A stretch of 31,080 nt of DNA from a virus, in the UHGV virus genome UHGV-0128382; one strand, 5' to 3'. The notes under the pieces were generated by a model. The model saw only the letters and a list, made by a program, of their open reading frames with translations. It had not been told where the DNA came from and searched no databases. Made by a program: the position numbers and the translations under genes. Positions 1 through 8,935 of the stretch are shown here, piece after piece. Position 1 is the stretch's first letter. Each line of letters opens with the position of its first letter.

Positions 1-49
1 TTATCAATTTGTTGCAACGAACAGGTCACTATCAGTCAAAATAAAATCA
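1..49. other. attP/attL P' arm fragment with arm-type Int-binding sites; core lies just beyond window start
   Basis: 'caggtcactat' at 22-32 and 'cagtcaaaat' at 33-42 match the lambda arm-type consensus C/AAGTCACTAT; the stretch matches the lambda P' arm as recalled and abuts the int stop codon. Confidence 0.7.
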
Positions 50-1120
50 TTATTTGATTTCAATTTTGTCCCACTCCCTGCCTCTGTCATCACGATACTG
101 TGATGCCATGGTGTCCGACTTATGCCCGAGAAGATGTTGAGCAAACTTATCGCTTATCTGCTTCTCATAGAGTCTTGCAGACAAACTGCGCAACTCGTGA
201 AAGGTAGGCGGATCCCCTTCGAAGGAAAGACCTGATGCTTTTCGTGCGCGCATAAAATACCTTGATACTGTGCCGGATGAAAGCGGTTCACGACGAGTAG
301 ATGCAATTATGGTTTCTCCGTCAAGAATCTCTTTGCATTTATCAAGTGTTTCCTTCATTGATATTCCGAGAGCATCAACATGCAATGCTGTTGGGATGGC
401 AATTTTTACGCCTGTTTTGCTTTGCTCGACATAAAGATATCCATCTACGATATCAGACCACTTCATTTCGCATAAATCACCAACTCGTTGCCCGGTAACA
501 ACAGCCAGTTCCATTGCAAGTCTGAGCCAACATGGTGATGATTCTGCTGCTTGATAAATTTTCAGGTATTCGTCAGCCGTAAGTCTTGATCTCCTTACCT
601 CTGATTTTGCTGCGCGAGTGGCAGCGACAGGGTTTGTTGTTATATGGCCTTCAGCTATTGCCTCTCGGAATGCATCGCTCAGTGTTGATCTGATTAACTT
701 GGCTGACGCCGCCTTGCCCTCGTCTATGTATCCATTGAGCATTGCCGCAATTTCTTTTGTGGTGATGTCTTCAAGTGGAGCATCAGGCAGCCCCCTCCTT
801 ATTGCTTTAATTTTGCTCATGTAATTTATGAGTGTCTTCTGCTTGATTCCTCTGCTGGCCAGGATTTTTTCGTAGCGATCAAGCCATGAATGTAACGTAA
901 CGGAATTATCACTGTTGATTCTCGCTGTCAGAGGCTTGTGTTTGTGTCCTGAAAATAACTCAATGTTGGCCTGTATGGCTTCAGTGATTGCGATTCGCCT
1001 GTCTCTGCCTAATCCAAACTCTTTACCCGTCCTTGGGTCCCTGTAGCAGTAATATCCATTGTTTCTTATATAAAGGTTAGGGGGTAAATCCCGGCGCTCA
1101 TGACTTCGCCTTCTTCCCAT
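50..1120 (-). CDS. int: Tyrosine integrase (lambda Int)
   Basis: 356-aa ORF; translation MGRRRSHERRDLPPNLYIRNNGYYCYRDPRTGKEF... matches lambda Int essentially end to end as recalled. Confidence 0.95.
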   Translation of the reverse strand: MGRRRSHERRDLPPNLYIRNNGYYCYRDPRTGKEFGLGRDRRIAITEAIQANIELFSGHKHKPLTARINSDNSVTLHSWLDRYEKILASRGIKQKTLINYMSKIKAIRRGLPDAPLEDITTKEIAAMLNGYIDEGKAASAKLIRSTLSDAFREAIAEGHITTNPVAATRAAKSEVRRSRLTADEYLKIYQAAESSPCWLRLAMELAVVTGQRVGDLCEMKWSDIVDGYLYVEQSKTGVKIAIPTALHVDALGISMKETLDKCKEILDGETIIASTRREPLSSGTVSRYFMRARKASGLSFEGDPPTFHELRSLSARLYEKQISDKFAQHLLGHKSDTMASQYRDDRGREWDKIEIK

Positions 1121-1316
1121 TTCTGATCCTCTTCAAAAGGCTACCTGTTACTGGTCGATTTAAGTCAACCTTTACCGCTGATTCGTGGAACAGATATTCT
1201 CTTCCATCCTTAACCGGAGGAGGGAATATCCTGCATTCGCGCACCCATCGACGAACTGTTTCAAGGCTTCTTGGGCGTCGCTGGCGTGCGTTCCACTCCT
1301 GAAGTGTCAAGTACAT
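1098..1316 (-). CDS. xis: Excisionase (lambda Xis)
   Basis: 72-aa ORF MYLTLQEWNARQRRPRSLETVRRWVRECRIFPPPVKDGREYLFHESAVKVDLNRPVTGSLLKRIRNGKKAKS; overlaps the int start as in lambda. Confidence 0.95.
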   Translation of the reverse strand: MYLTLQEWNARQRRPRSLETVRRWVRECRIFPPPVKDGREYLFHESAVKVDLNRPVTGSLLKRIRNGKKAKS

Positions 1317-1340
1317 CGCAAAGTCTCCGCAATTACACGC

Positions 1341-1364
1341 AAGAAAAAACCGCCATCAGGCGGC
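1341..1364 (-). terminator. Intrinsic terminator-like hairpin on the minus strand just upstream of xis
   Basis: Minus-strand stem GCCGCC / GGCGG with loop TGAT followed by TTTTTTCTT (plus strand 'aaaaaaccgccatcaggcggc'). Confidence 0.45.
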
Positions 1365-1765
1365 TTGGTGTTCTTTCAGTTCTTCAATTCGAATATTGGT
1401 TATGTCTGCATGTGCTATCTGCGCCCATATCATCCAGTGGTCGTAGCAGTCGTTGATGTTCTCCGCTTCGATAACTCTGTTGAATGGCTCTCCATTCCAT
1501 TCTCCTGTGACTCGGAAGTGCATTTATCATCGCCATAAAACAAAACCCGCCGTAGCGAGTTCAGATAAAAGAAATCCTCGTCAGTGCGAGGATGCTGTTC
1601 ATTGCTGCTATACACTTTTTTGCTCTCAACGTAAGCGGTAGCCCATTCTGTTGGGTTGGTGCAGTTGCTTTTAGGAAATGCTATTTACCCCTTAAATGTC
1701 GGCTGAAAGAGCTAAAATCCATGCAAAAAATTTACGCAATTTTGTGTATTATTGTGCAGTAAGTA

Positions 1766-2368
1766 ATGAGCTATTTTCTGCGCAAAAAATGGATGGTAAA
1801 TTTGTCCGGGTCAGGAAAAATTTTATGGGCGCTAAACATGAAAAAAGATTCGTATCCTTATTTGATTTGCATGACAGTTTCAGGGCTGATCTTTATTTTC
1901 CTTTTCTTCTGGTGGCGGGCAGATATCTACAGGGTCACGTTTCTTAATCAGAGTATATCCCACTATTACATTCTGTTTAGCATGGGAATAGCTTTTCTGT
2001 TATCTCTGTTTTGGGTTAAGAAGGGGATAGTAAAACAAAGAGGCTGGAAGAGTCTGTCAGCATACCTTAAGGTTTATGCAGGGATGTGCATATTTGCAGG
2101 ATTTTTTCTGATTATACCCCTTACGACACTAACTTATTTTTTGCCTGGAGAGACATCGTCTTATGTTGCACCGTATCGGTATACTTCCGGTAGTTCAAAA
2201 AGTTGTTCTGGAGCTGAGGTGGATGACCCCGATCTACATGAGAATATTCGCATTTGCTATCCGTATGGCAATTATGAGTACGATAATATTATCTATGTTG
2301 AAAAGAAAATTAATATATTAGGTGCGGTAGTGACATATGCACAGACCGCGCGTGATGATACTGAATGA
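1766..2368 (+). CDS. Hypothetical membrane protein, about 3 predicted TM helices plus a roughly 75-aa C-terminal soluble domain; accessory gene
   Basis: 200-aa ORF on the strand opposite the early-left operon; hydrophobic segments YLICMTVSGLIFIFLFFWW, HYYILFSMGIAFLLSLFWV, GMCIFAGFFLIIPLTTLTYFL; AT-rich coding; start codon uncertain (1766, 1793 or 1841). Confidence 0.55.
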   Translation: MSYFLRKKWMVNLSGSGKILWALNMKKDSYPYLICMTVSGLIFIFLFFWWRADIYRVTFLNQSISHYYILFSMGIAFLLSLFWVKKGIVKQRGWKSLSAYLKVYAGMCIFAGFFLIIPLTTLTYFLPGETSSYVAPYRYTSGSSKSCSGAEVDDPDLHENIRICYPYGNYEYDNIIYVEKKINILGAVVTYAQTARDDTE

Positions 2369-2402
2369 TATAGTATATAGCGGGCAAGTTTTAGTTAATT
2401 TA

Positions 2403-2426
2403 TCGAGGTAATATAATTTACCTCGA
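2403..2426 (+). terminator. Perfect 9-bp inverted repeat downstream of the 1766..2368 gene; possible terminator
   Basis: 'tcgaggtaa' - 'tataat' - 'ttacctcga', followed by a moderately T-rich 'ctcgtttgttctgg'. Confidence 0.35.
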
Positions 2427-2578
2427 CTCGTTTGTTCTGGTATTAATATTTCGCTTTACGACCGATTTTTATCTGATGATATCATGCGGTTTTCATATAC
2501 TGACTTACTGTCTTTTCTCCGTTAGCGATTTTCTCCTGCTCAGCGATGATTTTATCTTTGGCTTCTAGTTAATTTCGC

Positions 2579-2800
2579 TCACTTCGAACCTCTCTGTTTA
2601 CTGATAAGCTCCAGATCCTCCTGGCAACTTGCACAAGTCCGACAACCCTGAACGACCAGGCGTCTTCGTTCATCTATCGGATCGCCACACTCACAACAAT
2701 GAGTGGCAGATATAGCCTGGTGGTTCAGGCGGCGCATTTTTATTGCTGTGTTGCGCTGTAATTCTTCAATTTCTGATGCTGAATCAATGATGTCTGCCAT
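2579..2800 (-). CDS. TraR/DksA-family C4 zinc-finger protein (lambda orf73-like)
   Basis: 73-aa ORF with the CxxC...CxxC signature (CCECGDPIDERRRLVVQGCRTCASC); lambdoid phages carry a TraR homologue at this position. Confidence 0.8.
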   Translation of the reverse strand: MADIIDSASEIEELQRNTAIKMRRLNHQAISATHCCECGDPIDERRRLVVQGCRTCASCQEDLELISKQRGSK

Positions 2801-2898
2801 CTTCCATTAATCCCTGAATTGTTGGTTAATACGCTTGAGGGTGAATGCGAATAATAAAAAAGGAGCCTGTAGCTCCCTGATGATTTTGCTTTTCATGT

Positions 2899-3210
2899 TC
2901 ATCGTTCCTTAAAGACGCCGTTTAACATGCCGATTGCCAGGCTTAAATGAGTCGGTGTGAATCCCATCAGCGTTACCGTTTCGCGGTGCTTCTTCAGTAC
3001 GCTACGGCAAATGTCATCGACGTTTTTATCCGGAAACTGCTGTCTGGCTTTTTTGATTTCAGAATTAGCCTGACGGGCAATGCTGCGAAGGGCGTTTTCC
3101 TGCTGAGGTGTCATTGAACAAGTCCCATGTCGGCAAGCATAAGCACACAGAATATGAAGCCCGCTGCCAGAAAAATGCATTCCGTGGTTGTCATACCTGG
3201 TCTCTCTCAT
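2899..3210 (-). CDS. Hypothetical early-left protein (lambda orf61 position; start uncertain)
   Basis: 103-aa ORF whose start overlaps the 3' end of the next gene by 20 nt, as orf61/orf63 do in lambda; alternative in-frame starts at 3180 and 3114. Confidence 0.45.
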   Translation of the reverse strand: MRETRYDNHGMHFSGSGLHILCAYACRHGTCSMTPQQENALRSIARQANSEIKKARQQFPDKNVDDICRSVLKKHRETVTLMGFTPTHLSLAIGMLNGVFKER

Positions 3211-3382
3211 CTGCTTCTGCTTTCGCCACCATCATTTCCAGCTTTTGTGAAAGGGATGCGGCTAACGTATGAAATTCTTCGTCTGTTTCTACTGGTATTG
3301 GCACAAACCTGACTCCAATTTGAGCGAGGCTATGTGCCATCTCGATACTCGTTCTTAACTCAACGGGAGATGCTTTGTGCAT
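3191..3382 (-). CDS. Hypothetical early-left protein (lambda orf63-like)
   Basis: 63-aa ORF; size and overlaps match the lambda orf63 position. Confidence 0.6.
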   Translation of the reverse strand: MHKASPVELRTSIEMAHSLAQIGVRFVPIPVETDEEFHTLAASLSQKLEMMVAKAEADERDQV

Positions 3383-3537
3383 ACAGCTCCCCGTTTATTA
3401 TTTATCTCCTCAGCCAGCCGCTGTGCTTTCAGGGGATTTCGGATAACAGAAAGGCCGGGAAATACCCAGCCTCGCTTCGTAACGGAGTAGACGAAAGTGA
3501 TCGTGCCTACGCGGATATTATCGTGAGGATGTTTCAT
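3355..3537 (-). CDS. Hypothetical early-left protein (lambda orf60a-like)
   Basis: 60 aa from the ATG at 3535-3537, which overlaps the exo stop codon (ATGA); 28-nt overlap with the upstream gene, as in lambda. Confidence 0.6.
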
Positions 3538-4214
3538 CGCCATTGCTCCCCAAATACAAAACCAATTTCAGCCAGTGCCTCGTCCATTTTTTCGATGAAC
3601 TCCGGCACCATCTCGTCAAAACTCGCTATATACTTTTCATTCCGCTCAATCACGACATAATGCAGGCCTTCACGCTTCATGCGCGGGTCATAGTTGGCAA
3701 AGTACCAGGCATCTTTTCGCGTCACCCACATGCTGTACTGCACCTGGGCCATGTAAGCCGACTTTATGGCCTCGAAACCACCGAGCCGGAATTTCATGAA
3801 ATCCCGGGAGGTAAACGGGCATTTCAGCTCAAGGCCATTGCCGTCACTGCATAAACCATCGGGAGAGCAGGCGGTGCGCATACTTTCGTCGCGATAGATG
3901 ATCGGGGATTCAATAACATTTACGCCGGAAGTGAACTCAAACAGAGTTCTGGCGTCGTTCTCGTACTGTTTTCCCCATGCCAGCGCCTTAGCATTAACTT
4001 CCGGAGCCACACCGGTGCAAACCTCAGCCAGCAGGGTGTGGAAGTAGGACATTTTCATGTCAGGCCACTTCTTTCCTGAGCGGGGCTTGGCTATCACGTT
4101 GTGAACTTCTGAAGCGGTGATGACGCCGAGCCGTAATTTGTGCCATGCATCATCCCCCTGTTCGACAGCTCTCACGTCGATCCCGGTACGCTGCAGGATA
4201 ATGTCCGGTGTCAT
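3534..4214 (-). CDS. exo: Lambda exonuclease (Red alpha)
   Basis: 226-aa [68 protein letters not shown]... matches lambda Exo as recalled. Confidence 0.95.
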
Positions 4215-4996
4215 GCTGCCACCTTCTGCTCAGTGGCTTTCTGTTTCAGGAATCCAAGAGCTTTCACTGCTTCGGCCTGTGTCAGTTCTGACGATGCGCG
4301 AATGTCGCGGCGAAATATCTGGGAACAGAGCGGCAATAAGTCGTCATTCCATGTTTTATCCAGGGCGATCAGCAGAGTGTTAATCTCCTGCATGGTTTCA
4401 TCGTTAACCGGAGTGATGTCGCGTTCCGGCTGACGTTCTGCAGTGTATGCGGTATTTTCGACAATGCGCTCGGCTTCATCCTTGTCATAGATACCAGCAA
4501 ATCCGAAGGCGAGACGGGCACACTGAATCATGGCTTTATGCCGTAACATCCGTTTGGGATGCGACTGCCACGGCCCCGTGATTTCTCTGCCTTCGCGGGT
4601 TTTGAATGGTTCGCGGCGGCATTCATCCATCCATTCGGTAACGCAGATCGGATGATTGCGGTCTTTGCGGTAAATCCGGCATGTGCAGGATTCGTTGTCC
4701 TGTTCAAAGTCCATGCCGTCAAACTGCTGGTTTTCGTTGATGATGCGGGACCAGCCATCAACGCCCACCACCGGAACGATGCCGTTCTGCTTATCAGGGA
4801 AGGCGTAAATTTCTTTCGTCCACGGATTAAGACCGTACTGGTTGGCGACGATCAGCAATGCGATGAACTGCGCATCGCTGGCATCACCTTTAAATGCCGT
4901 CTGGCGAAGAGTGGTGATCAGTTCCTGTGGGTCGACAGAATCCATGCCGACACGTTCAGCCAGCTTCCCAGCCAGCGTTGCGAGTGCTGTACTCAT
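4211..4996 (-). CDS. bet: Bet single-strand annealing protein (Red beta)
   Basis: 261-aa [69 protein letters not shown]... matches lambda Bet as recalled. Confidence 0.95.
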
Positions 4997-5721: not shown

Positions 5722-6015
5722 TCAGGCGGCCTTGATAGTCATATCATCTGAATCAAATATTCCTGATGTATCGATATCGGTAATTCTTATTCCTTCGCTA
5801 CCATCCATTGGAGGCCATCCTTCCTGACCATTTCCATCATTCCAGTCGAACTCATACACAACACCATATGCATTTAAGTCGCTTGAAATTGCTATAAGCA
5901 GAGCATGTTGCGCCAGCATGATTAATACAGCATTTAATACAGAGCCGTGTTTATTGAGTCGGTATTCAGAGTCTGACCAGAAATTATTAATCTGGTGAAG
6001 TTTTTCCTCTGTCAT
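5722..6015 (-). CDS. ea10: Ea10-like early protein
   Basis: 97-aa ORF at the lambda ea10 position between cIII and ral; the true start may lie further upstream. Confidence 0.6.
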   Translation of the reverse strand: MTEEKLHQINNFWSDSEYRLNKHGSVLNAVLIMLAQHALLIAISSDLNAYGVVYEFDWNDGNGQEGWPPMDGSEGIRITDIDTSGIFDSDDMTIKAA

Positions 6016-6686: not shown

Positions 6687-7268
6687 ATGAACAACTCATG
6701 GTGGCAGGAACTAATGCATTTTTTCCTGCAAGGAATGACACTTAAACAGTTGATTCATATGCTAATCATCCTGATCATATTGATTATTGTTATGCCGGTA
6801 AGCGTAAAAGAATGGATAAACCTGCATAATCCAGAAATCCTTCCTCATTACTGGATGTATTACATCCTGTTGTTTTGCGTTAGCTATGTGCTTAACGGCG
6901 TTGTTAATTCCGCTTATCACGCTGTGACTGAAAGAATTGAGGTATTCGTTGCTCAGAAGCGCAAATCTAAAGAAGAAAAATATGTGCAAGATTTGTTTGA
7001 TTCGTTAACTCTTGGAGAAAGAGCGTATTTGGCATTCGCTGTAGCCGCTAATAACCAGCTACAAACGGAAAAGGGAGCTCATGAATCAATTTCATTGCTC
7101 AAAAAAGGACTCCTCGTTCGAAGGCCTCCTGCTGTTGGATATCCTGATACCGACCGTTTTGTTATTCCTGAAAGCTATAGACATGAGTGCTACATTCGGT
7201 TTGCCGGGAAGGCAGACAGCCTTATGGATGAACTTATCGCTCAGGATAAGCATGGCAAAAACAAGTAA
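6687..7268 (+). CDS. sieB: Superinfection exclusion protein B (SieB)
   Basis: 193-aa ORF on the plus strand inside the leftward operon, with hydrophobic N-terminal segments (LIHMLIILIILIIVMPV, YWMYYILLFCVSYVL); matches lambda SieB position and sequence as recalled. Confidence 0.85.
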   Translation: MNNSWWQELMHFFLQGMTLKQLIHMLIILIILIIVMPVSVKEWINLHNPEILPHYWMYYILLFCVSYVLNGVVNSAYHAVTERIEVFVAQKRKSKEEKYVQDLFDSLTLGERAYLAFAVAANNQLQTEKGAHESISLLKKGLLVRRPPAVGYPDTDRFVIPESYRHECYIRFAGKADSLMDELIAQDKHGKNK

Positions 7269-8035: not shown

Positions 8036-8935
8036 TTATTTGATTATTTCTTTTATAAAGACTTCTTTCGGTTGGTATTTTTTATCTGATGATTTGAGCT
8101 GGTACGTTATTGTTATATCAGCACGTACAGCAAATTTACCTGCAAAATCTGATGGGTTTACGTTGGGGCCAAGAACCATATTTACTCTTCGATCTATTAA
8201 TCCAGGGATAACAGCAGCCCAACCTTTCTCTGGATTGTCGAGGTCTAATGCACGGATTTCAACATCAACATCAAAATGATCCTGAGTATATGACTCTGGT
8301 GTGAAGACAACTTCAGTTGGGGCTTTTTTAATGGTTTCAGCGGGAATGGTCACTGTACCACCCCCTGTACCTATGACCATCGTAGATCCTTCGTCTGCCC
8401 TAGCTGGGGCAAGCGTCTTAATGGAACTTTTGGCAAGAGTCTTCTTATTGGTTACCGTGCTTTCTATGATTGCTTGAAGACGGTCAGGTGAAATATTAGC
8501 CTCACCGGCACCAATATTGATGATTGTATTGTTATTTGCTTCAAAGTGGGAGGTGTTGCTTGGAGCCATAGCCTTAGTTGCTAGAACTAAGCCATATCCA
8601 ACCAGACCAATAACAACAGCACCAACGAGAGCGTTTCTCATTTTCCCATTTCCGATCTTTGCATGAGCGCCAGCAAGAAACTTGTCCATTTCTTCTTGGC
8701 TACCAAAGAGGAGTTTAATAACAATATCTTCATAAAGGCTTCCTGCTTCTAATCGCGCAACATGCACCGATATATCAAGGATATTAGCCCCTGTCAGTTC
8801 CTGCAAAACACCTTCTGATTGTTTTGCGATGGCCTCCCACCCTTGAAGGGAGGTAATCACATCTTTGATGCTTACAGGTTCTTTAGTTGAATAATATATG
8901 TTTTCGGTAAAGGTTAAAGATAATTCTTGGGACAT
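8036..8935 (-). CDS. Hypothetical single-pass membrane protein at the rexA/rexB position; candidate exclusion or abortive-infection protein
   Basis: 299-aa ORF with a GAGGG RBS, co-oriented with and immediately downstream of cI; one central hydrophobic helix (LVGAVVIGLVGYGLVLATKAMA, about nt 8573-8641); no family I recognise. Confidence 0.7.
   Translation of the reverse strand: MSQELSLTFTENIYYSTKEPVSIKDVITSLQGWEAIAKQSEGVLQELTGANILDISVHVARLEAGSLYEDIVIKLLFGSQEEMDKFLAGAHAKIGNGKMRNALVGAVVIGLVGYGLVLATKAMAPSNTSHFEANNNTIINIGAGEANISPDRLQAIIESTVTNKKTLAKSSIKTLAPARADEGSTMVIGTGGGTVTIPAETIKKAPTEVVFTPESYTQDHFDVDVEIRALDLDNPEKGWAAVIPGLIDRRVNMVLGPNVNPSDFAGKFAVRADITITYQLKSSDKKYQPKEVFIKEIIK

Follow-up and report, generated by a model that had tools for sequence, protein, structure and literature searches.

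A moron-like membrane-protein gene of apparent P2-family origin in place of ea8.5 and ea22 in a lambdoid phage

Introduction

A moron is an accessory cassette of a phage genome that is transcribed independently. A textbook case is that of HK97 gp15, in which conserved phage genes of the tail gene cluster enclose a promoter, the gene for a small membrane protein of 62 amino acids, and a terminator; gp15 reportedly functions in superinfection exclusion. SieA of phage P22 is also prophage-encoded and located in the inner membrane; it is about 160–180 amino acids in length, has three predicted transmembrane (TM) helices, and is expressed from a single gene with its own promoter, which is found in the gene 16–gene 9 slot of P22-like phages only. 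The conserved motif of SieA is predicted to be cytoplasmic, and the protein blocks DNA injection (PMC10883804). A different setting for such functions is the hotspot between the portal gene (gpQ)/cos and gpA in P2-family prophages. Experiments have shown this hotspot to be rich in anti-phage systems; it holds old, tin, and several validated defence systems, along with cargo unrelated to defence, for example partition systems and toxins (PMC9122126). Genes of unknown function in the equivalent P4 hotspot often turned out to be defensive (PMC13586616).

Here we describe a single-gene membrane-protein cassette in the virus genome UHGV-0128382. The stretch of DNA analysed, 31,080 nucleotides in length, is referred to as the window. 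The cassette lies in the lambdoid exo–xis region, looks like a moron, and bears traces of a P2-family hotspot.

Results

Substitution of the lambda ea8.5–ea22 region

The window was compared with lambda (J02459) by BLAST. Positions 1–1593 correspond to lambda 27763–29355 (98.9% identical) and positions 2567–4286 to lambda 30380–32100 (97.3% identical), as expected from the preliminary description, in which the flanking genes were said to match lambda. That description had placed an AT-rich non-lambda insertion at 1317–2578, between xis and the TraR-like gene. AT-rich foreign DNA does occur there, but because lambda homology ends at 1593 and restarts at 2567, the foreign segment is limited to 973 bp (Table 1). 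It is also a substitution rather than an insertion: lambda 29356–30379, which comprises ea8.5 and nearly all of ea22, the two genes anticipated at this place, has been displaced. The GC content is 0.34–0.41 across 1601–2600 and about 0.45–0.55 in the flanks.

The coding content of 1317–1700 had been left open. The portion up to 1593 is ordinary lambda DNA with tI, orf55, and two minus-strand terminators, the second of which (1574–1593) abuts the left edge of the substitution. Near the right edge lies what is left of an ea22-family gene. Its codons 1–5 (VSEIN) are those of lambda Ea22 and are followed by a stop and by an out-of-frame C-terminal fragment, LEAKDKIIAEQEKIANGEKTVSQYMKTA. In a P88-like prophage (L029), the Ead_Ea22 gene is convergent to the prophage's membrane-protein gene and has a frameshifted C-terminus, which the fragment matches. 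The slot therefore agrees with that of lambda in its position between orf55/tL4 and orf73 and in retaining five ea22 codons and a C-terminal ea22-family fragment. It differs in that ea8.5 is gone, ea22 is gutted, and an unrelated membrane-protein gene occupies the opposite strand.

Table 1. Features of the substituted region and its flanks (window positions).
Feature	Position	Strand	Basis and remarks
tI-type terminator hairpin	1347–1366	−	Terminator scan; annotated at the equivalent place in 434 records; outside the substitution
Lambda orf55 homologue, 55 aa	1356–1523	−	ORF list; phrog_676, E 1.7e-39; ORF55 in M60848; 98.9% to lambda
Two tandem terminator hairpins (1543–1562 and 1574–1593)	1543–1593	−	Terminator scan; t-L4 (tL4) of 434 record M60848 maps here
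56-aa ORF, probably spurious	1592–1762	+	Annotated in 434 and mEp332
Non-lambda substitution, 973 bp	1594–2566	.	BLAST against J02459 and GC content
Relic of portal-proximal, cos-flanking intergenic DNA of P88-like phages	1615–1700	+	Gapped alignment to E. coli P2-family copy L012, 5693–5775
Two 10-bp-periodic direct repeats (tTTGTGTAtt ATTGTGCAgt)	1742–1759	+	Alignment; CII site according to the 434 annotation
In-frame upstream ORF extension, probably untranslated	1766–1837	+	Coding not conserved; upstream of predicted transcription start
Predicted core promoter, extended −10	1774–1802	+	Conservation footprint; sequence-level prediction
Gene for 176-aa inner-membrane protein	1838–2368	+	Homologues, alignment, AF2, hydropathy/charge/conservation, dN/dS
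Hairpin with perfect 9-bp stem and 6-nt loop, then CTCGTTTGTT; likely terminator	2403–2426	+	Terminator scan, RNA fold
Gutted ea22-family gene	2482–2582	−	Translations
TraR/DksA-type zinc-finger gene, lambda orf73 homologue, right flank	2579–2800	−	PF01258, E 1.6e-8; phrog_54; 97% to lambda

Start of the membrane-protein gene

The plus-strand ORF previously noted at 1766–2368 (200 amino acids) exists, and the ORF list places it, as had been recognized, opposite in orientation to the genes of the early-left operon. Its start, however, is likely 72 nt further downstream, and the gene most likely encodes 176 amino acids. The conserved start is Met25, which is used by all homologues of 42–78% identity in the alignment. 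Because these diverged homologues start at Met25, because an E. coli P2-family copy (L012) has an in-frame TAA upstream of it, and because the extension lies 5′ of the predicted transcription start, the first 72 nt of the ORF are probably untranslated.

Annotated lengths of the gene vary among records, being 188 amino acids in 434, 200 in mEp332 and RefSeq, and 176 in some PGAP records. A pseudogene-like "truncated" form of 112 amino acids, which occurs in more than 1000 contigs, proved to be an annotation artefact, with the full 176-amino acid frame intact upstream. The 56-aa ORF preceding the gene has no family match in Pfam and PHROGs searches, and in the homologous sequence from the P2 family several indels disrupt its frame.

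Promoter, terminator, and upstream repeats

The predicted promoter is composed of TTTTCT and TAAATT separated by 17 nt, with TG at −15/−14 and a predicted start near 1809. This block shares 97% identity with its counterpart in the E. coli P2-family copy and 75% with Salmonella copies, which have the same spacing (TGATAAATT), whereas the spacer and 5′ UTR around it have decayed in the same comparisons and synonymous sites of the gene are close to saturation. The predicted −35 is weak (3/6), and the block was not called by a simple consensus scan.

The perfect 9-bp hairpin reported earlier after the gene was found again as an inverted repeat with arms at 2403–2411 and 2418–2426. It begins its stem 35 nt past the stop codon, is followed by a T-rich tail, has a terminator-like score, and folds with a z of −3.1. 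The E. coli P2-family copy has an imperfect counterpart. This hairpin is likely to be the intrinsic terminator of the cassette. A scan of the region returned eight terminator-like sites as compared with 1.1 expected, and an Rfam scan of 1300–2900 gave no match.

As judged from the DNA, the cassette looks like a moron in having a conserved block predicted to be its promoter, a likely terminator of its own (the 9-bp hairpin and its tail), and a foreign base composition (GC 0.39 for the gene vs 0.46 for flanks in the window and 0.54 for flanks in P2-family loci). It also constitutes extra DNA between neighbours whose interval is filled differently elsewhere, by ea8.5/ea22 in lambda and without the gene in P88.

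The direct repeats (ATTGTGCA) contain TTGT-N6-TTGT at 1742–1755, the position at which a CII consensus is annotated in the 434 record. They are conserved at 83–89% while the adjacent spacer has decayed, and in P88-like phages that lack the gene, the shared sequence runs exactly up to them. The repeats are a backbone element of P88-like phages adjoining cos, and P2-family phages are not known to encode a CII. At pRE, pI, and paQ, TTGC-N6-TTGC repeats flank the −35, and a suitably spaced −10 follows. Those in the window are instead ~50–67 nt upstream of the conserved −10. At the pRE/pI spacing from the 1742–1755 repeats stands AGCTAT, which would make a poor −10; the conserved −10 follows 41 nt later. 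By arithmetic, TTGY-N6-TTGY is expected by chance about six times per 48-kb genome, counting both strands.

Architecture and selection

The 176-amino acid protein has three TM helices, a periplasmic loop 1, and a C-terminal small β-barrel of five strands, according to AlphaFold2 (AF2) and hydropathy. This bears out the earlier outline of about three TM helices and a small C-terminal domain. The AF2 model has a pLDDT of 84.8 over its full length and of 87.8 within the C-domain. Loop 2 has five lysine or arginine residues and no acidic ones; it and the N-terminus are positively charged and the C-domain is acidic, which predicts an N-in/C-out topology with the positive segments inside and the acidic domain outside. 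Conservation peaks in the periplasmic parts (0.71 vs 0.48). Two cysteines in the periplasmic barrel, Cys123 and Cys140 (176-aa numbering), are invariant in the alignment and probably form a disulfide.

For the gene as a whole, dN/dS ratios are 0.13 and 0.10, and for the C-domain 0.08 and 0.05, indicating strong purifying selection. Purifying rather than diversifying selection on a periplasmic domain speaks against exclusion, in that it fits a conserved target, possibly of the host, better than an arms race with phages.

Family relationships

Searches of Pfam-A and NCBIfam with the protein and all 18 aligned members gave noise matches only (DUF6057, E 0.18). No Pfam-A family was matched by the aligned members at E ≤ 1, and thus no colicin or immunity family; no defence-protein model in PADLOC-DB 2.0 was matched at E ≤ 1, and a sequence profile search of the PDB gave no match. 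The one PHROG match, to phrog_1416 (function unknown), covers residues 113–200 only, probably due to the short internal starts annotated in many records. A profile search of 1.84 billion proteins yielded a family of 61 representatives, all in Enterobacterales and sharing one architecture. A weak match to a 3074-aa repeat protein at a Cys-rich stretch was judged to be spurious.

The protein resembles P22 SieA in being prophage-encoded, in its length, in its three predicted TM helices and inner membrane location, and in being the product of a single gene with its own promoter, which is here a predicted one. Homology to SieA was rejected on the basis of hhalign alignment of the family (probability 0.2%), and the SieA motif FxRYPxEAxxFNK is absent from the family alignment. 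Unlike in SieA, the conserved parts are periplasmic. The sites occupied by the gene are the lambdoid xis–orf73 slot, the P2-family portal–gpA hotspot, or the chromosome, none of which is the SieA slot. With HK97 gp15 the cassette shares the moron layout but neither size nor location, and homology was likewise rejected (hhalign probability 1.2%). None of the Pfam, NCBIfam, PADLOC, PDB, SieA, and gp15 comparisons linked the protein to an exclusion, defence, or immunity protein of established function.

Distribution

The whole segment 1317–2578 is 98–99% identical in phages 434, mEp332, and 2B8. In 434, CPT_434_36 ("putative membrane protein", UMO75300.1) is the same gene at the same locus with the same neighbours, although 434 has an additional ORF114 between tI and orf55. 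Among 5426 complete E. coli genomes, 981 (~18%) carry the gene. In O157 Sakai it is ECs_0804, located in the defective prophage Sp3/CP-933K adjoining ybhC. There it is intact in spite of the decay of Sp3, whose int and bet are pseudogenes, and it is also intact in a gutted KplE1-like remnant. No function is assigned to the gene in the 434, mEp332, 2B8, or O157 Sakai records (PMC9119081).

The homologues of 55–78% identity from E. coli, Salmonella, Klebsiella, and Enterobacter are in every case located in P2-family prophages, in the portal–gpA interval, and most family members of at least 55% identity are in prophage accessory hotspots. Chromosomal homologues outside prophages occur in Enterobacter mori, a Klebsiella species, and Cedecea neteri, the first two having host-like composition (GC3 0.65–0.74). 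The genes around them vary from genus to genus and so suggest no pathway. Host-like homologues outside prophages hint at a cellular role, and in this respect speak against exclusion.

Relics of a P2-family hotspot

At the DNA level, the cassette is 76% identical to the E. coli P2-family version, and the window retains cos-flanking backbone DNA of the P2-family hotspot upstream of the gene. Within this relic, 1670–1705 gives a short BLAST match of 81% to both L029 and L012. About 87 bp of the P88-like cos flank is absent from it; the missing DNA resembles the P2 cos sequence and may hold a P2-type cos site. P88 lacks the gene at the homologous site, as does lambda at its own. The cos-flank relic together with the gutted ea22-like gene points to transfer from a P2-family phage. 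On this view, a P88-like phage would have supplied the cassette from its cos-adjacent accessory hotspot to 434-type lambdoid phages, where it displaced ea8.5 and ea22; a piece of cos flank and an ea22-family 3′ end came along. The gene was not found among the tested systems that appear in the accessible part of PMC9122126.

Discussion

Phage 434, about 18% of complete E. coli genomes, and the P2-family hotspot all contain the cassette, which argues for a real and probably host-protective accessory gene. Our tentative reading is that of a single-gene moron of P88-like origin, whose most likely function is protection of the lysogen, at its envelope, by superinfection exclusion, a best guess drawn from genomic context and from analogy. 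The extended −10 promoter would drive the gene, and transcription would end at the hairpin following it. The cassette opposes the pL early-left operon and so would be free for expression from a repressed prophage; during lytic growth, antisense pL transcripts would oppose it. The conserved loop 1 and β-barrel, the latter with its likely disulfide, are predicted to face the periplasm, and the protein may act on the periplasmic side of the inner membrane to interfere with genome entry by incoming phages.

A more far-reaching proposal, which we consider possible though on the unlikely side, is that the protein founds a new family of single-protein envelope guards restricted to Enterobacterales. 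Such a family would have arisen from a chromosomal membrane protein and would shuttle between the cos-adjacent hotspots of P2-family phages and the lambdoid exo–xis region via shared ea22-family genes. Its disulfide-bonded periplasmic barrel would bind a conserved component of the host or of the phage and so block genome entry, or some other attack that depends on the periplasm.

It is unlikely, in our estimation, that the protein is instead a fitness factor for the envelope or physiology, having a native cellular role (for instance, the modulation of a periplasm-facing host protein, transporter, or sensor kinase) and being carried as phage cargo with no part in exclusion. The ameliorated chromosomal homologues are consistent with such a role, as is the purifying selection on the periplasmic domain, which suggests a conserved host partner, and the protein is without similarity to any defence protein in PADLOC. 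Yet the chromosomal neighbours are different in every genus, the members of at least 55% identity are mostly in prophage accessory hotspots, and the family is very small and restricted to Enterobacterales.

That the protein is an orphan immunity protein, shielding the lysogen from competitors that use a periplasm- or membrane-directed toxin (a colicin, bacteriocin, contact-dependent inhibition system, or type VI effector), seems to us improbable. Colicin M immunity provides an example of a membrane-anchored immunity protein. The size, membrane anchor, and small periplasmic domain with its likely disulfide resemble such proteins, and the gene stands alone with its own predicted promoter, but no toxin gene is nearby in any context examined, and the Pfam-A and PDB searches described above gave no match.

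We regard as quite improbable an abortive-infection effector that senses infection at the envelope, depolarises or permeabilises the membrane, and kills the cell. A lone small protein in which neither a sensor nor an enzymatic domain can be recognised, conserved most in a compact periplasmic barrel rather than in its TM helices, and stably carried both in about 18% of E. coli genomes and as a seemingly ordinary gene of the chromosome does not fit this well, even though the AT-rich cassette may be silenced until needed and membrane proteins are frequent effectors in P2/P4 hotspot defence systems (PMC9122126). Finally, a functional plus-strand transcript made from a CII-activated promoter, antisense to the pL operon at the establishment of lysogeny and with only an incidental ORF, accords with the orientation of the cassette and the CII consensus annotated in 434 but is very improbable given the position, chance frequency, and gene-independent presence of the repeats and the strong purifying selection on the ORF across homologues of 42–78% identity.

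The gene is carried by phage 434, which is among the founding phages of molecular genetics, by O157:H7, and by P2-family prophages of several genera, and yet has neither a name nor a Pfam family. Corrections to public records concern the start codon, the 56-aa ORF, which is probably spurious, and the doubtful CII site. The history of the cassette is a concrete case of cargo from a P2-family defence hotspot reaching the lambdoid exo–xis region. If superinfection exclusion is indeed its function, the protein would represent a new single-gene exclusion family and would be relevant to host range in phage therapy. If the protein is an envelope guard of the broader kind proposed above, this would account for an exclusion phenotype that has escaped recognition in phage 434 and in the cryptic O157 prophage Sp3.

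Extent of the foreign segment

Lambda homology ends at position 1593 and restarts at 2567, so the foreign, AT-rich DNA between xis and the TraR-like gene comprises 1594–2566 (973 bp). In BLAST against lambda (J02459), window 1–1593 matched lambda 27763–29355 (98.9%) and window 2567–4286 matched lambda 30380–32100 (97.3%). The preliminary description was correct that such a segment exists, but its interval (1317–2578) began 277 bp too far left; the coding content it had left open is, over 1317–1593, ordinary lambda DNA (tI, an orf55 homologue, and two terminators). The segment is also a substitution rather than an insertion. It stands in place of lambda 29356–30379, which holds ea8.5 and ea22 except its first codons, and the displacement of these two genes is thereby confirmed. 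GC content is 0.34–0.41 over 1601–2600 versus roughly 0.45–0.55 on either side. Further right, the lambda-type left arm carries exo and bet.

Features in the window
Feature	Position	Strand	Remarks
int	50–1120	minus	lambda-type left arm
xis	1098–1316	minus	PF07825, E 3.9e-41
tI hairpin	1347–1366		lambda DNA outside the substitution
orf55 homologue	1356–1523		lambda DNA; phrog_676, E 1.7e-39
Tandem terminators (two)	1543–1562 and 1574–1593	minus	second corresponds to t-L4 as marked in the older 434 entry
Repeats	1742–1759		identity 83% to E. coli P2-family copy, 56–89% to Salmonella copies
Spacer	1760–1773		identity 50% (E. coli), 36% (Salmonella)
Core promoter block (predicted)	1774–1805		identity 97% (E. 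coli), 75% (Salmonella)
5' UTR (predicted)	1806–1837		identity 72% (E. coli), 41–44% (Salmonella)
Gutted ea22-family gene	2482–2582	minus	first five codons VSEIN, then stop
Lipocalin, Blc-like	18227–18751	minus	
2-thiouracil desulfurase/DUF1722 protein	18944–19903		
AraC-type regulator	20398–20979		

The membrane-protein gene and its predicted promoter

The 200-amino acid plus-strand ORF (1766–2368) is present as described, but the gene most likely spans 1838–2368 and encodes 176 amino acids. We found 74 homologues of the protein. Those with 42–78% identity (from Salmonella, Klebsiella, Enterobacter, and Cedecea; 169–180 amino acids) all start in alignment with Met25 of the ORF, and across the 72 nt 5' of Met25 identity to the E. 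coli P2-family copy is 81%, but that copy has an in-frame stop there; together these make 1838 the most likely start. The predicted transcription start, located downstream of ATG1766, again favors it. By the Nei-Gojobori method, dN/dS is 0.13 when the E. coli P2-family copy is the comparison and 0.10 when Salmonella is (0.08 and 0.05, respectively, for the C-terminal domain), with dS about 1–2. The perfect 9-bp hairpin with a 6-nt loop at 2403–2426 is as described, and the fold of its region is better than those of shuffled sequences (z = -3.1). An abundant 112-amino acid database form of the protein is an annotation artifact, as the full frame is intact upstream. A separate 56-amino acid ORF (1592–1762) spans an indel-ridden relic, is not conserved in frame, and is probably spurious.

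The conserved block upstream of the gene consists of TTTTCT, 17 nt, and TAAATT, with TG two bases upstream; the Salmonella block has identical spacing (TGATAAATT). We interpret it as a predicted extended -10 promoter, with a start near 1809. A simple promoter scan did not flag this block, as the -35 matches at only three of six positions. Direct repeats of ATTGTGCA with 10-bp periodicity, in two to three copies, precede it in the window and occur at ~5887–5922 of a Salmonella locus (L005) and ~3703–3732 of an E. coli locus (L029). Prophages of the P88-like type and P2-family prophages of Salmonella conserve them next to cos, and the lambdoid copy keeps them. In the 434 record, TTGT-N6-TTGT (window 1742–1755) is marked as a CII site. 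This reading appears doubtful, since the repeats belong to the P88-like backbone, lie ~50–67 nt upstream of the conserved -10, and have a poor -10 hexamer (AGCTAT) at the pRE/pI spacing, and since chance alone should yield so degenerate a motif several times per genome.

The cassette runs antisense to pL transcription. Antiterminated pL transcripts would cross it and continue as far as tL4 and tI, and its own predicted promoter would, judging from lambda biology, be unopposed in a repressed prophage.

Structure and topology of the protein

The AlphaFold2 model, built with the family alignment (pLDDT 84.8 for the whole protein), has three long helices (5–31, 38–61, and 70–101) and a five-strand β-domain, in keeping with the approximately three transmembrane helices and small C-terminal domain first noticed. 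Modeled alone, the β-domain has a pLDDT of 87.8. Hydropathy and charge place the N-terminus (MKK) and loop 2 (five K/R, no acidic residues) inside, with loop 1 and the C-domain, which is acidic (6 K/R, 12 D/E), outside. The C-domain contains two invariant cysteines, in CSGA and ICYP motifs. The two predicted periplasmic parts are the best conserved, with a mean column identity of 0.71 versus 0.48–0.60 for the helices and cytoplasmic loop.

Pfam, NCBIfam, and PADLOC gave no family match for the protein, and the PHROGs match was limited to phrog_1416, a family of unknown function. Among 1.84 billion representative proteins, a profile search picked out just 61 relatives, all of the same architecture, and a sequence profile search of the PDB was empty. 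P22 SieA, a 162–164-amino acid inner-membrane injection blocker with three transmembrane segments (PMC10883804), is unrelated (hhalign probability 0.2%), as is HK97 gp15 (1.2%).

Distribution

Phage 434 already has an annotation for this locus, without an assigned function. The interval 1317–2578 is 99.0% identical in mEp332, 98.4% in 2B8, and 98.3% in classical phage 434, whose ORF (CPT_434_36) is labeled "putative membrane protein"; the label in every source is hypothetical or transmembrane protein. The 434 genome announcement says only that the morons of 434 differ from those of lambda, and assigns no function (PMC9119081). Unlike the window, 434 has an extra ORF114 between tI and orf55.

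Of 5426 complete E. coli genomes, 981 carry the membrane gene, in every case on the chromosome (915 at ≥95% identity, 66 at 60–90%). The O157:H7 Sakai copy (ECs_0804) lies in the defective prophage Sp3 adjoining ybhC, in which int and bet are pseudogenes. The E. coli 19-5 copy, which neighbors torI and dsdC, is intact within a KplE1-like remnant that has been gutted. A 114-amino acid ORF, equal in length to ORF114 of 434, adjoins torI there (L036, 1509–1853, minus strand), and this arrangement, in a remnant keeping the membrane gene, suggests kinship between this cryptic prophage and the left arm of 434-type phages.

Every homologue of 55–78% identity sits in the interval from the portal gene to gpA of a P2-family prophage, in E. 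coli (L012, L029), Salmonella (L004–L007, L013–L015), Klebsiella michiganensis (L016–L018), and Enterobacter hormaechei (L027). This cos-adjacent locus, which carries old and tin in P2, is a demonstrated reservoir of anti-phage systems (PMC9122126). According to a later survey, 19% of P2 elements hold only unknown genes at this hotspot, and unknown genes of this sort in P4 often turned out to be protective (PMC13586616). The K. michiganensis hotspot (L016–L018, 2281–5623) also encodes, beside the homologue, a 790-amino acid AAA_16 protein and a 279-amino acid protein without a Pfam match, which may form a two-gene defense system.

The more distant homologues, of 42–55% identity, are lone chromosomal genes with differing neighbors in Cedecea neteri, Enterobacter mori, and a Klebsiella species; composition is host-like in E. 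mori (GC3 0.65) and in the Klebsiella species (0.74). Prophage copies have GC3 of ~0.38–0.46 versus ~0.54 in their flanks, except at the K. michiganensis locus (flanks 0.42).

Origin of the lambdoid copy

Window 1701–2458 has 76% DNA identity to the E. coli P88-like loci, a match that takes in 137 nt upstream and 90 nt downstream of the gene. Gapped alignment extends this homology back to ~1615, with ~87 bp of P2-family sequence absent from the window. P88-like phages without this gene have the portal-to-cos backbone in common exactly as far as the ATTGTGCA repeats and then carry different hotspot cargo. The window thus holds backbone DNA of the P88-like type, from the hotspot's portal side, and this favors the view that a P2-family genome, either circular or as a prophage, passed the DNA to a lambdoid phage. 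At the other end, the VSEIN start of the gutted ea22-family gene is identical to that of lambda Ea22, and the gene retains an out-of-frame fragment (LEAKDKIIAEQEKIANGEK...) matching the frameshifted C-terminus (LETKDNRIAELEKIA...) of the Ead_Ea22 gene that is convergent to the membrane gene in the P88-like prophage L029. This match makes shared ea22 homology a plausible recombination handle. Ead_Ea22-family genes in the cos-adjacent hotspot occur at L029 4477–4812 (minus strand, frameshifted) and in phage P88 (L033, 2871–3538), adjoining a StbA/ParM-StbB partition pair in P88-like hotspots; the family is therefore common to lambdoid exo-xis regions and P2-family hotspots.

Other cargo in the window

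A SieB superinfection-exclusion homologue is encoded at 6687–7268 (plus strand; PF14163, E 2.5e-22). A 299-amino acid ORF without a Pfam match (8036–8935, minus strand) adjoins the S24/HTH repressor gene (9065–9772), at the site of rexA and rexB in lambda. Directly after replication genes O and P, the nin-side region carries large virulence-type cargo, a 1183-amino acid inverse autotransporter of the intimin/invasin adhesin type (12354–15905, plus strand; IAT_beta, E 1.2e-100, with Big_1/Invasin_D3 repeats). A cluster of non-phage-looking genes occupies 18227–20979.

Possible function

Several facts bear on function. The gene forms a self-contained AT-rich cassette of its own, remains intact in decayed prophages, and has ameliorated chromosomal relatives. 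It occupies accessory slots in two unrelated temperate phage families, one slot being a validated defense hotspot, and its predicted periplasm-facing surface is conserved under strong purifying selection. We tentatively favor a prophage-expressed envelope guard, most likely acting in superinfection exclusion at the inner membrane. The selection on the periplasmic domain suggests a conserved putative binding partner, more likely a component of the host or some conserved piece of a phage than anything that evolves fast.

That the gene is cargo whose role lies in the cell envelope and has nothing to do with phages is possible but clearly less probable. Orphan immunity to a periplasm-acting toxin seems unlikely, and an abortive-infection effector more unlikely still. 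That a CII-driven antisense RNA is the real product, as the CII site marked in 434 might suggest, is very improbable.

The membrane gene is of an ordinary kind, a phage moron whose product is a small membrane protein, and the path it seems to have taken from P2 to lambdoid phages by way of ea22 is neat, if modest as a finding. The family to which it belongs is uncharacterized, widespread, and easy to test.
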